A DNA stretch of 64,000 nt from Escherichia phage EPIMRB01: the sequence record PQ657784; one strand, given 5' to 3'. Below the pieces are notes generated by a model that was not told the origin of the DNA, did no database searches, and saw nothing but the letters and a program-made list of their open reading frames with translations. Positions within the stretch are counted from its first letter, which is position 1. Each line of letters starts with the position of its first letter. A program made the position numbers and the translations under genes. Positions 50,266 through 54,310 of this stretch are shown here, piece by piece.

Positions 50266-50580
50266 CTAAAAGAAACTTCTTTCACAATTTTTTCCACTGA
50301 ACCACGCGCTCACTGCTTTCTTAGTCTCAGGAGCAGTGTTATCCATAAACCATTCAAAGGCAGCCTTTTTATGATTCTGGAGGGCTTCTCGGGCTTTAAT
50401 CTGCTCACGGTCTATTAACACTAACATATGAGCCTTTCTTGTCACCAAGGGCTTCTTATGATTTTTTGAATACTCCCAATCATTTGTCCATCGCATCGTT
50501 GTTGCGAACTGAAATACTGCTTCTTTAATTTTAGTTTCGTAAATTTCACGAGCCTTTGAGTATAACATCATTACCTCCAT
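50266..50580 (-). CDS. hypothetical protein
   Basis: 104-aa ORF. Confidence 0.45.
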   Translation of the reverse strand: MEVMMLYSKAREIYETKIKEAVFQFATTMRWTNDWEYSKNHKKPLVTRKAHMLVLIDREQIKAREALQNHKKAAFEWFMDNTAPETKKAVSAWFSGKNCERSFF

Positions 50581-50669: not shown

Positions 50670-51638
50670 TTATTTCAGAAGAGTAACCTCAGCGATTTCT
50701 TCCCAACCGTTTTTGTCGGTCATAATAAAGTCAGCAAGATAAAGAGCAGTACGCAGTGAAACATTGCGTAAACGATTAACATTGACTTTCATCCATGATA
50801 ATGCTTTATAAGTTTCTTCATCAGAAAGACCGCGCTTTTGCATCATGTCAGTTGAAAGAATAACATCTTCAACCCTGACCATAATTTCTTCATTAGTGTG
50901 AACACCTAAATCTAAATAAACTGAGCGGGACACTAATGCTTGTAAATGTGGAGCAAGTTTAGTACCACGGTCTAATTCGCGGTCAATGTCAACGTTTGTG
51001 ATAAAAACAATCGTTCCTTTAAATTCAAACTCACGCTCAATGCCTTTTTCTTCTAAGTAAGAAGATGCAGTGCTCCAGCAGACTTTACGGGTCTCTCCAG
51101 TGTCCAGAGCAGCTTTCAGAAGATTAAGAATGTCCATATCAGAGAAAACATCCACATCATCAATCAAAAGGACAGAATTCTCTTCACGATTATTCCAAAG
51201 CTGCTCATAAAGACCAATACCAGAGATTTTACCGTTAATGCTTTTATACTCAATGTATCCAATATCATTTGCTTTATTTAAAGCTTTATCTAAAGAATAC
51301 GTTTTACCAATACCTGCTGCACCAGAGATAATTAATGAACGAATGTTTCCGTTAATAATACCATTCGTCATCATTCCCATAACATTAAATCTTTTATTAA
51401 TGCGGGTTTTCATATCTTCATATGATTCTTTAACTTCTTCAACTTTTACACCGTCATATGAAATGTCTGATTTGTAAACCCAAACACCGCGACGTTTACC
51501 GTCAATTTCAACAAAAACTTTACCATCTCCTTGTGCATCTACCGGAGCATTATCAGGGAACCACTCACCTAAGAGTTCAAAAGTTCCAGAGATTTCTTTG
51601 CCAAAGTAGATACCCTTATTGATAGTTACAGTTTTCAT
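50670..51638 (-). CDS. predicted AAA+ / P-loop ATPase
   Basis: 322 aa from ATG at 51638; Walker A SGAAGIGKT and Walker B VLLIDDVD; own early promoter and cassette leader. Confidence 0.6.
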   Translation of the reverse strand: MKTVTINKGIYFGKEISGTFELLGEWFPDNAPVDAQGDGKVFVEIDGKRRGVWVYKSDISYDGVKVEEVKESYEDMKTRINKRFNVMGMMTNGIINGNIRSLIISGAAGIGKTYSLDKALNKANDIGYIEYKSINGKISGIGLYEQLWNNREENSVLLIDDVDVFSDMDILNLLKAALDTGETRKVCWSTASSYLEEKGIEREFEFKGTIVFITNVDIDRELDRGTKLAPHLQALVSRSVYLDLGVHTNEEIMVRVEDVILSTDMMQKRGLSDEETYKALSWMKVNVNRLRNVSLRTALYLADFIMTDKNGWEEIAEVTLLK

Positions 51639-51682
51639 TTTATTCTCCAAATCCGTATCAGTTGATAGTTGTATAGTACCAT
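51632..51682. repeat. 51-bp promoter-leader cassette repeat, copy 2
   Basis: identical to 24947-24997. Confidence 0.8.
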
Positions 51683-51702
51683 AAAGCTTTATGCTTGTAA
51701 AC
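51673..51702 (-). promoter_or_regulatory. early promoter of cassette type upstream of ATPase gene
   Basis: GTTTAC-N18-TACTAT; leader identical over 51 nt to copy at 24947-24997. Confidence 0.55.
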
Positions 51703-51732
51703 CGTTCTGTGAAAAATTTTTGAAATAAAAAA

Positions 51733-51752
51733 AGGGAGCCCGAAGGCTCCCT
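51733..51752 (-). terminator. rho-independent terminator downstream of NTase gene
   Basis: AGGGAGCC-UUCG-GGCUCCCU then UUUUUUUAUUUC. Confidence 0.6.
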
Positions 51753-51753
51753 A

Positions 51754-52767
51754 TCATTTATAATAACTTCGGTGGTTTTCAAGATAGACCTTCTCAAGGA
51801 AGTCATCCCAGAAACTCATATCTACTTTTTGCTGCATACCGTTCTTAGAAGCTTCAGTAGATGCTGCTTCTACTTGATCTACCACATCTTCCAAAAACTC
51901 TTGAACTATTTTAAATGGATGTTTACCCAACTTCACGTCGAGAATAAATGGAGCATCTTGGAGTGGATAAACCAAGTCGCCAGTTTTGTAAATTTCCAAT
52001 AGTTGGAGTCCACCACGACAAGCATGACTTAGTGCTTTCCAATCAATACCTTCATTAGCTTCGGCTTTACGAGCACGTTCACCATATTCAGCATCTAATT
52101 TGTTCAGTGACTGCTTAAGCTCAATAAGAGAAAGCGTTGTCTGATATTTACGACCCAGCACTGTATAGAACGTTTGTGGACCTGTTTTCTCATGATTATG
52201 GAACACCCATTCACAGAATTCGTTTTCTGGAAGACGATGCTTAATATCTTCAATTTTAGTGCGACGTTGTCCTTGTGTTCCATCTTCTCGGTAGACATTC
52301 CGTTGATCAGGAATTTGATTAATTACTTTCAACACATCACGTAATGCAGCTAGACGAGAACCTTTAACACCATATTTAGAGGCTTGCTTGCGGACATATC
52401 CTAAATAGGATTTCATGTTAGTCGTATAAAAACGAGAACGGTTGTCTTGAATAAACTTCCACACATCAGGCAAATCAGATTTAACCACTAGTTCAGGTGG
52501 AGTGTGAAGCATATCCAATGCTACAGTTTCACCATCTGCTGCTAATTTAAAGAAATACTTAAGACTATACAATTCGTGGTCAATATCATCTTTAGTGTTT
52601 TTAGATGATGTGTTGTTGGTATTTTTACTCATGTGCTCTTTGACATTTCCGATAAGAATATCGCGAGCAGGAGGAACAAAGATTTCTTTAAAATCTACAT
52701 CAGATTCTGGGGTAGAAGTTCCATAAAGATGACTACCGAAATAGCTTTTCATTACTGTTTTCATCAT
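51754..52767 (-). CDS. predicted Pol-beta-superfamily nucleotidyltransferase-fold protein
   Basis: 337-aa ORF; N-terminal GS-x9-DVD motif (GSHLYGTSTPESDVD) plus downstream acidic residue (ALDMLH); terminator hairpin right after stop. Confidence 0.55.
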   Translation of the reverse strand: MMKTVMKSYFGSHLYGTSTPESDVDFKEIFVPPARDILIGNVKEHMSKNTNNTSSKNTKDDIDHELYSLKYFFKLAADGETVALDMLHTPPELVVKSDLPDVWKFIQDNRSRFYTTNMKSYLGYVRKQASKYGVKGSRLAALRDVLKVINQIPDQRNVYREDGTQGQRRTKIEDIKHRLPENEFCEWVFHNHEKTGPQTFYTVLGRKYQTTLSLIELKQSLNKLDAEYGERARKAEANEGIDWKALSHACRGGLQLLEIYKTGDLVYPLQDAPFILDVKLGKHPFKIVQEFLEDVVDQVEAASTEASKNGMQQKVDMSFWDDFLEKVYLENHRSYYK

Positions 52768-53225
52768 TCAGCCTTATATTCAATAACAGGACATACTTTA
52801 GCTTTACGAGCTTTTAAAAATTCAACGATAATCGATTTCTTGGGTTGAATAGGAGGTAAACCTTTATTTTTCCTATCAATGTTTTCTACGTGTAAAGCAT
52901 AATCCTTTTTCCATTTATAATCTTTATATTTTTCACGCAAATGTACAGGAATAACAAATGAACCAATAATAAGTAAAACAACCAAAAGCGCAAGTATAAA
53001 TGCTGATGGAAGCAAAGTCCATAAACTACCGAAAATAAGCCATCGTTGTAGGCTTTCTGCACAAATAATTGTTAGCCCTACAAGTATAGCACATCCAAAA
53101 ATAGAAACGAAAAATGTAGGAATGACAATAGACCAAAAATATGCGCATAATGTCTTAGGTCGTTGCCATTCATCGTTAAACAATTTGAATAATTTATAGT
53201 GCCAAGAGTTTTCATTAATAATCAT
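52764..53225 (-). CDS. hypothetical membrane protein
   Basis: 153-aa ORF with several TM segments. Confidence 0.5.
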   Translation of the reverse strand: MIINENSWHYKLFKLFNDEWQRPKTLCAYFWSIVIPTFFVSIFGCAILVGLTIICAESLQRWLIFGSLWTLLPSAFILALLVVLLIIGSFVIPVHLREKYKDYKWKKDYALHVENIDRKNKGLPPIQPKKSIIVEFLKARKAKVCPVIEYKAE

Positions 53226-53227
53226 AA

Positions 53228-53749
53228 TTATCCTTTCATTGAAGGCGTAACGGTTGTTAAATACTTAATCATAGCTTCAGCTTCTGATTTTGATAATGAA
53301 ATTTCTTCACCGTTTTGACGAATAGAAATAAAATCCGGATGACGGTCACCACCAGCTTTTAAAACACACATATAAGTATCAGTTTCGCCTTCAATATTTG
53401 AAATGATTGAAGCAGTTCCGCATGAATGTGGTTTTTGATAAATCAATACAGCTTTTCTTCCACCGTTTGACTGTTCATAGGCTTTTAATACATCAAGCAA
53501 ATCAGTTCTTTTATCAATAGCTAAAATGTTATTTTCATCTTCAATGTTAAATCCTTCGGATACTTCATAAAGCGTTACCCATAAATCACCGATGTCAATA
53601 ACAGCATTTACTTTTCCACGGCTTTCAAGAGTATGACAAATTTTCTTGATTTCGTCATAACTCATTTTAATAATATCATCTCCTTGACTAAGAAAGATGT
53701 CATTTTTAAATTCAACACGAATTAAACCACTTCCACTTGAAATAAACAT
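53228..53749 (-). CDS. hypothetical protein (paralog pair member)
   Basis: 173-aa ORF; C-terminus EAEAMIKYLTTVTPSM resembles next ORF. Confidence 0.5.
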   Translation of the reverse strand: MFISSGSGLIRVEFKNDIFLSQGDDIIKMSYDEIKKICHTLESRGKVNAVIDIGDLWVTLYEVSEGFNIEDENNILAIDKRTDLLDVLKAYEQSNGGRKAVLIYQKPHSCGTASIISNIEGETDTYMCVLKAGGDRHPDFISIRQNGEEISLSKSEAEAMIKYLTTVTPSMKG

Positions 53750-53755
53750 ATTTCC

Positions 53756-54310
53756 TCACTTTGAAATCATAGTTGGAATGACAGAATCAAGATAAGTCTT
53801 TAGCGCAATAGCTTCGTCTTTGGTAAATGTAATGATATGTGATCGAAAATCATCAATTTGACGAATAGATACTACATCTCCCTCTTCATAGCATTTTGAC
53901 ACATTTAAAATAGTTTCATCATTCTGATCGCAAGCGTTAGTAATAATAGCATTGCAATTTTTGAGCCATTTTAAACTATGTTTTCTTTCATTAGAATAAT
54001 AAAAATATTTAATCTTAGCTATAAAACTATCCCAATGGATAACTGATAAACACATTGACTCGCTTTTAATATTAAATCCTGGGCATGAAGAATAAAAATG
54101 AATTTTATGCTCATCATTAATGCTTACAATTTTATCAGTGTAAGCATATTCAATTTGAGTTAAACGAACAATTTCACTAGGTGTAAAATACAGCATATCG
54201 TCTTCTTGCGTCAAACGATACATATTATTTACTTTTTCTATAGCCAATTCACCAAAAAGTGGACTAACTTCTAATACTAATCGTTTCATATTAATCCTTT
54301 TTATTGGCAC
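53756..54310 (-). CDS. hypothetical protein (paralog pair member)
   Basis: 184-aa ORF; C-terminus DEAIALKTYLDSVIPTM. Confidence 0.5.
   Translation of the reverse strand: MPIKRINMKRLVLEVSPLFGELAIEKVNNMYRLTQEDDMLYFTPSEIVRLTQIEYAYTDKIVSINDEHKIHFYSSCPGFNIKSESMCLSVIHWDSFIAKIKYFYYSNERKHSLKWLKNCNAIITNACDQNDETILNVSKCYEEGDVVSIRQIDDFRSHIITFTKDEAIALKTYLDSVIPTMISK

Follow-up and report, generated by a model that had tools for sequence, protein, structure and literature searches.

The window analysed here, a 64,000-nucleotide stretch from Escherichia phage EPIMRB01 (sequence record PQ657784), carries two adjacent genes on its minus strand that correspond to nrdC.10 and nrdC.11 of phage T4. The first (50670-51638), delimited from the list of open reading frames (ORFs) and by comparison with T4, encodes an AAA+ ATPase of 322 amino acids (aa). 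The second (51754-52767), identified by Pfam, T4 comparison and its match to PHROG 388, encodes a Pol-beta-type nucleotidyltransferase (NTase) of the RlaP family, which is 337 aa long when counted from the first ATG; in the annotations of T4 and of Escherichia phage AUBRB02 the start is placed at the second Met, giving 336 aa (51754-52764). The 2.7-kb stretch around the locus matches AUBRB02 at 100% identity and many Tequatrovirus genomes at 96-97% and, as judged from its sequence, the window is that of a T4-type phage, a Tequatrovirus.

The initial annotation of this DNA, made from its letters and ORFs, recognised neither product as a named T4 protein. They are in fact NrdC.10 (NP_049708; PHROG 1250), with 314 of 316 residues identical (99%), and NrdC.11 (NP_049709), with 320 of 336 residues identical (95%) over the full length. 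The order nrdC.11, nrdC.10, nrdC.9, nrdC.8 and onward is that of T4, and the ATPase gene keeps its position between nrdC.11 and nrdC.9, its product differing from the T4 protein in the last six residues and in length (322 versus 325 aa). The gene names are positional only, and the T4 RefSeq entries read 'hypothetical' for NrdC.10 and 'nucleotidyltransferase' for NrdC.11; the homology leads to uncharacterised T4 proteins and not to characterised housekeeping genes. Both genes are nevertheless already catalogued: the AAA and nucleotidyltransferase domains of the T4 proteins were predicted in a 2006 publication, with NrdC.11 as COG3541, and the biochemistry of the NTase family was reported in 2025. 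In very many GenBank phage records the homologues of both proteins carry the label 'thioredoxin'. A Pfam scan detected no thioredoxin similarity in either protein, and these labels are a systematic annotation error that apparently arose from the 'nrdC.' prefix of the gene names.

The view that both genes are accessory was borne out, as T4 can do without them on laboratory E. coli. In a CRISPRi-ART knockdown screen of T4 on such hosts both nrdC.10 and nrdC.11 were scored 'Not Fit', and nrdC.11 lies inside a T4 block, nrdC.11-mobD.3, that can be deleted.

Transcription signals lie between the two genes. Directly after the nrdC.11 stop codon (51754-51756), pattern scanning and RNA folding located an intrinsic terminator on the minus strand (51733-51752; AGGGAGCC-UUCG-GGCUCCCU followed by a U-run), whose predicted fold has a free energy of -17.5 kcal/mol (z = -3.4 versus shuffled sequences); the strong UUCG terminator that had been proposed to close the NTase gene is therefore present. 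Upstream of nrdC.10, a pattern scan identified an early-type promoter-like site (51701-51673, minus strand), TTTACA-17-TACTAT with an extended -10 TG. The core of this site and the leader that follows it (GTTTACAAG ... TACTATACAACTATCAACT) are repeated upstream of nrdC.8 (50262-50234, minus strand), which fits the earlier proposal of a 'cassette' early promoter in front of the ATPase gene. At its other end, the start of nrdC.11 overlaps the stop codon of an upstream ORF for a 153-aa membrane protein (ATGATG/TGA, 52762-52767), suggesting that the NTase gene is the last of an upstream unit. The idea that each gene forms its own transcription unit consequently stands for the ATPase gene, which appears to open a new unit, and for the 3' end of the NTase gene, but not for its 5' end, where nrdC.11 is the tail of the unit before it.

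The nucleotidyltransferase NrdC.11 and its proposed role in RNA repair

On sequence grounds NrdC.11 belongs to the RlaP family. The Pfam model RlaP (PF10127) scores 43.9 bits on it against a cut-off of 23 (E 3.1e-11) and is present on all but two partial-length homologues among the matches listed; the protein also falls into PHROG 388, 'nucleotidyltransferase', and its full-length family comprises 823 clusters at 50% identity with E below 1e-30. All parts of the Pol-beta signature, the G-[GS] turn, the D-x-D and a third acidic residue, are found in the protein. The alignment places the catalytic motif G11-S12-x10-D23-x-D25 (D23-V24-D25) at 52693-52737 on the minus strand, so that the motif described previously as GS-x9-DVD is real, with a spacing of ten residues instead of nine. 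The same alignment, of 71 homologues with 33-96% identity, confirmed the later acidic residue and extended it to three: G11, S12, D23, D25, D61, D63 and D85 are all invariant, and no catalytic acidic residue has been lost. The pair D61-I-D63 (52579-52587, minus strand), at the predicted strand 62-68 of the NTase sheet, is the candidate for the third catalytic carboxylate, the choice between the aspartates being provisional, and D85 lies in the motif ALDMLH (52513-52515, minus strand).

The AlphaFold2 (AF2) models are confident, with a mean pLDDT (predicted local distance difference test) of 90.1 for NrdC.11 and 89.7 for NrdC.10 and, taken together with an RlaP score well above its cut-off, they indicate that the features described here are not due to chance. 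The NrdC.11 model consists of the NTase sheet, a beta-rich insert (155-209) and helices (214-336) that end in a terminal helix (317-336). The crystal structure of the Pseudomonas protein PfRlaP has an N-terminal NTase domain and a C-terminal helical domain, whose final helix packs back on the NTase domain. NrdC.11 shares with Pseudomonas RlaP the G-S...D-x-D and Asp set, and its model predicts a similar division into an NTase domain and a helical C-terminal region. It is, however, longer than the RlaP Pfam model (249 positions) and has the predicted beta-rich insert in addition. When both proteins of the locus were compared with PDB chains, in single-sequence and profile searches, the best E values were only 0.11-0.14, and the PADLOC and NCBIfam scans returned no family for either of them.

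RNA repair was first recognised as a counter-defence in T4, where Pnkp and RNA ligase 1 (Rnl1) act against PrrC. RlaP proteins have recently been connected with the same kind of repair. Two of them from Pseudomonas, PfRlaP and PaRlaP, add one or two nucleoside monophosphates (NMPs) to RNA 3'-OH ends, favour the 3' end of a nicked-tRNA mimic and are inactive on DNA and on protein, leaving E. coli proteins unlabelled (PMC12776372, a December 2025 preprint). In the same work, aminoacylation was partly restored for a repaired tRNA that had lost one anticodon-loop nucleotide, RlaP was proposed as an antidote to 'smart' ribotoxins such as RloC, and T4 NrdC.11 was explicitly marked as an RlaP, in cluster 5 of the sequence similarity network (SSN) of PF10127. 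An earlier comparative study found that the distribution of RlaP mirrors that of RNA ligases in jumbo phages, and made the same repair prediction for phage RlaPs (PMC7824862). The idea of RlaP against RloC is therefore already in print; NMP addition to RNA 3'-OH ends has been shown for the Pseudomonas enzymes only, and for phage enzymes it is a prediction.

The distribution of NrdC.11 among phages is in line with this idea. A tblastn search over whole phage records gave, for NrdC.11, Rnl1, Pnkp and NrdC.10 in this order, 608, 636, 635 and 557 records for Escherichia; 286, 287, 286 and 149 for Klebsiella; 83, 83, 83 and 76 for Shigella; 75, 77, 77 and 48 for Aeromonas; 69, 69, 70 and 72 for Acinetobacter; 56, 56, 56 and 36 for Enterobacter; 55, 54, 124 and 121 for Vibrio; and 48, 48, 48 and 43 for records named 'Enterobacteria'. 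The NTase tracks Rnl1 and Pnkp closely, and its counts are nearly the same as those of Rnl1 in all eight groups, for which another explanation is hard to find. Genes for RNA ligase 2 (Rnl2), PseT (Pnkp) and Rnl1 are all present in the AUBRB02 genome, tens of kilobases from nrdC.11; in contrast to the rtcB-rlaP-rtcA arrangement of Pseudomonas, nrdC.11 is not in an operon with a ligase.

By homology, NrdC.11 would be a template-independent RNA nucleotidyltransferase that extends the 3'-OH end of broken RNA by one or two NMPs, and it would most likely act between Pnkp and Rnl1. In such a pathway Pnkp would heal the cleaved ends to 3'-OH and 5'-phosphate, NrdC.11 would replace the nucleotide removed from a host tRNA by 'nucleotide-excising' anticodon nucleases of the RloC type, and Rnl1 would seal the break, extending the classical tRNA-repair counter-defence of T4. 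Since the RlaP product carries a 3'-OH, it is compatible with ligases that use a 5'-phosphate. If NrdC.11 does restore nucleotides excised by RloC, it would be the third enzyme of the Pnkp-Rnl1 pathway and mark another turn in the arms race over tRNA.

The AAA+ ATPase NrdC.10

The Walker motifs reported for the ATPase are present and intact. Walker A (SGAAGIGKT, aa 105-113) lies at 51300-51326 and Walker B (VLLIDDVD, aa 156-163), which reads DD and not DE, at 51150-51173, both on the minus strand; S105, G106, A107, G109, G111 and K112 of the former and D160 and D161 of the latter are invariant. The sensor-1 residue N215 (FITN) and the S237-R238-S239 motif, coded together by 50925-50996 on the minus strand and placed on the fold with the secondary structure of the AF2 model, are invariant at all four positions, and R238, which precedes strand beta-5, is the candidate arginine finger. 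Across 48 homologues, down to 53% identity, the Walker motifs, N215, R238 and R291/R296 are invariant or nearly so. The model divides into three parts. Residues 1-62 form a beta-domain of five strands at the N-terminus; the AAA+ core follows at about 100-243, with a small beta insert ahead of its sensor-1 strand; and residues 249-322 make up a lid of helices. NrdC.10 thus has all the general marks of an AAA+ protein: Walker A and B, sensor-1, a candidate arginine finger, and the alpha/beta core with its lid.

The more specific affiliation was less clear. NrdC.10 shares the alpha/beta core and lid, Walker A and B, and the sensor-1 Asn with MoxR/NorQ/CbbQ, NtrC-type, DnaA, ORC/Cdc6 and RFC proteins, its SRS arginine before beta-5 is comparable to the RFC 'SRC' motif, and its lid arginines also resemble those of classical AAA+ ATPases. 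Unlike the latter, it has the DD form of Walker B and an N-terminal beta-domain of its own. All Pfam AAA models remained below their cut-offs, and none of the clades considered (clamp loader, DnaA/Orc/Cdc6, MoxR, NtrC) could be assigned. The 64-kb window encodes no paralogue of either NrdC.10 or NrdC.11, the gp44 clamp loader reaching an E value of 0.26; to our knowledge, and with our scan covering this window, T4 has no AAA+ protein besides the clamp loader and NrdC.10.

NrdC.10 is widespread among phages and conserved about as well as replication genes. It occurs at 99% identity or more in 482 phage records, with homologues of 55-65% identity in Acinetobacter and Aeromonas phages and of 31-45% in Vibrio, marine and jumbo phages, and in a BFVD search the family reached Roseobacter phage RDJL Phi 1 (33% identity to NrdC.10) and uncultured phages, with no functional names attached. 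A scan of 185,579 species genomes returned only seven loci, all on contigs of metagenome-assembled genomes (MAGs), one of them 167 kb long and so of T4-phage size; we take these to be phage sequence binned with the MAGs, which would make NrdC.10 essentially confined to phages.

Its neighbours point, weakly, to DNA transactions. A UvsW gene lies near the NrdC.10 homologue in 21 of 48 distant loci, and clustering of its immediate flanking genes on both sides, for up to 65 loci, placed UvsW directly downstream in 10 and a small Fe-S-assembly-like ORF in 6; no immediate neighbour was universal in this set. In uncultured marine T4-like phages (IMG/VR contigs L018-L058, for example L052:10346-12916) uvsW follows the homologue immediately or after a single small ORF. 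In two contigs of other T4-like lineages, of 183 and 247 kb (L013:8595-9923 and L014:11039-12325) it adjoins a topoisomerase II gp52-like gene (DNA_topoisoIV, E about 1e-73), and in a further locus (L048) a gene for a gp46/Rad50-like SMC_N ATPase. In at least one marine locus the 856-aa UvsW is split by an intein-like insertion of the LAGLIDADG type. These UvsW, topoisomerase and gp46 neighbours lend weak support to a role in DNA transactions, and they outweigh anything that links NrdC.10 to the NTase. NrdC.10 would accordingly be described as a phage-only, stand-alone AAA+ protein with an N-terminal beta-domain, probably transcribed from its own early promoter. The guess that we favour is that it acts on DNA or nucleoprotein in replication or recombination, as a loader or remodeller driven by ATP, and does not have the NTase as its partner. 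It may represent a type of AAA+ loader that is conserved in many phages but has gone unrecognised, and that cooperates with UvsW or topoisomerase.

Two independent genes or one module

Our preferred reading, to which we give a probability of about 0.6, is that nrdC.11 and nrdC.10 are two independent accessory genes and not a module, the former acting in RNA repair and the latter being a stand-alone AAA+ ATPase. The initial annotation had instead proposed an NTase with an ATPase partner, forming one early-expressed module for counter-defence, nucleotide-signal modification or superinfection exclusion, in which, for example, the product of a CD-NTase- or MNT-like enzyme would be handled by the ATPase. 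Some observations speak for such a module: in 32 of the 80 NTase loci, each with an NTase identity of at least 62%, the ATPase gene follows on the same strand, 0.1-2.3 kb downstream of the NTase gene; the NTase is nearby in all nine T-even-type ATPase loci; both genes are dispensable accessories; and nrdC.1, for which anti-defence activity is proven (anti-Septu), belongs to the same region. The association does not extend beyond this group, however. None of the 40 more distant NTase loci has the ATPase within 10 kb, and just nine of the 69 IMG/VR loci with the ATPase have an NTase gene at a distance of up to 10 kb, all nine belonging to T4-like phages of the enterobacterial or Acinetobacter kind. 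The close relatives L078, L080 and L112 carry nrdC.11, nrdC.8, nrdC.6 and others in order, with nrdC.10 cleanly absent and nrdC.9 kept in L078 and L112, and a distance of about 112 kb separates the two genes in a 173.6-kb IMG/VR contig of an Aeromonas-type phage (638275429). The genus counts, which give lower bounds for records with one gene, imply that the NTase occurs without the ATPase in no fewer than 137 phage records of Klebsiella and 51 of Escherichia, and the ATPase without the NTase in no fewer than 66 of Vibrio. Clade-limited adjacency, absence from syntenic relatives and distant placement together suggest that the adjacency reflects conserved gene order within one clade, and the membrane-protein ORF stands beside the NTase gene about as often (33 loci) as the ATPase gene does (32 loci). 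With a strong terminator and a separate promoter between the genes, different phyletic distributions, and no match to a CD-NTase, SMODS or MNT family in Pfam or PADLOC, we regard a joint module as improbable, and the 'gene pair' as the product of conserved gene order between two catalogued genes.

Several points weigh against our reading. Adjacency is usual within T-even-type phages (32 of about 40 loci), and a functional link limited to that clade may exist. The genus counts are totals and do not represent record-by-record co-occurrence. Among the 80 NTase loci, Pnkp was found within 10 kb in only two (about 9 kb away) and Rnl2 in none, Rnl1 not having been searched in these loci. The RlaP match covers only the N-terminal half of NrdC.11 (aa 7-135), leaving the C-terminal 200 aa unmatched, and with this part, including the beta-rich insert, the substrate of the T4-type enzyme could differ. 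Finally, the literature searched contained no experiment on T4 NrdC.11 itself.

The other readings of the individual proteins fared less well. The comparison with CD-NTase, MNT/AbiEii and Cid1-type signalling enzymes that had been suggested for the NTase gave no support from Pfam, PADLOC or fold, so that counter-defence, as part of the earlier proposal, survives as the best reading for the NTase, probably through RNA repair, whereas nucleotide signalling does not. NrdC.11 might alternatively be an MNT-type modifier that nucleotidylates and neutralises a host RNase toxin of the HEPN type instead of repairing RNA, an idea with some weak four-helix-bundle similarities behind it; yet the Pfam MNT model stays below its cut-off, NTP_transf_2 scores 13.6 bits on NrdC.11 against a cut-off of 21, no HEPN gene stands next to the NTase gene (its neighbours being the membrane-protein ORF and the AAA+ gene), the characterised RlaPs left E. 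coli proteins unlabelled, and the agreement of its phyletic counts with those of Rnl1 and Pnkp favours RNA repair, all of which makes it very unlikely. We consider it extremely improbable that NrdC.11 resembles HalB in synthesising DNA or oligonucleotides without a template, as an enzyme whose oligo-dA-type products would keep DNA-gated channels of the Hailong type shut (anti-Hailong), or which would form a Hailong-like exclusion or decoy device with the coupled membrane protein. HalB of the Hailong system makes oligo-dA and pairs with the channel HalA (2026 review), whereas the family of NrdC.11 has been shown to use RNA and not DNA. Its identity to HalB (PDB 9dbh) is only 15%, with no sequence-level profile match, and it passes the RlaP cut-off instead; moreover, T4 has mobD where the membrane-protein gene stands here, distant NTase loci have no membrane gene nearby, and the 153-aa ORF matches PHROG 944 only, with no Pfam family above cut-off in comparisons that did not include HalA. 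As for NrdC.10, it might be a chaperone ATPase of the MoxR/CbbQ kind, which would remodel a protein complex and have no role on nucleic acids, but neither AAA_5, CbbQ nor any other MoxR-type family was among the Pfam matches, no VWA partner was noticed among the neighbouring genes scanned, and the weak sequence-level matches go to clamp-loader PHROGs and to Cdc6; we hold this unlikely, and retain the reading of NrdC.10 as a stand-alone AAA+ protein with a possible role in DNA transactions.

Neighbouring genes

The ORF upstream of nrdC.11 (52764-53225, minus strand; ORF list and PHROG 944, 'membrane protein') encodes the 153-aa multi-pass membrane protein, is translationally coupled to the NTase gene and occupies the place of T4 mobD. 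In the 33 of 80 NTase loci mentioned above, all from T-even-type phages, a homologue of this ORF precedes the NTase gene in the same orientation. In T4, the HNH homing-endonuclease gene mobD stands between nrdC.11 and mobD.1. The corresponding interval of the window (52764-53749, minus strand) holds the 153-aa ORF and a 173-aa ORF, the latter a paralogue, with 28% identity, of the adjacent mobD.1 homologue (53756-54310), which is itself 90% identical to T4 MobD.1.

On the other side of the locus, the nrdC.9 homologue (50266-50580, minus strand) matches the Pfam family DUF7203 (E 2.8e-15) and PHROG 1931. Relatives frequently lack this gene or carry a truncated copy, also when they have retained nrdC.10 or nrdC.8. 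Lastly, outside the window, the AUBRB02 genome (L161) has two full-length tandem genes for the ADP-ribosyltransferase Alt annotated at 83228-87382, alt_1 and alt_2, in contrast to T4, which has one alt gene and the short remnants alt.-1 and alt.-2.

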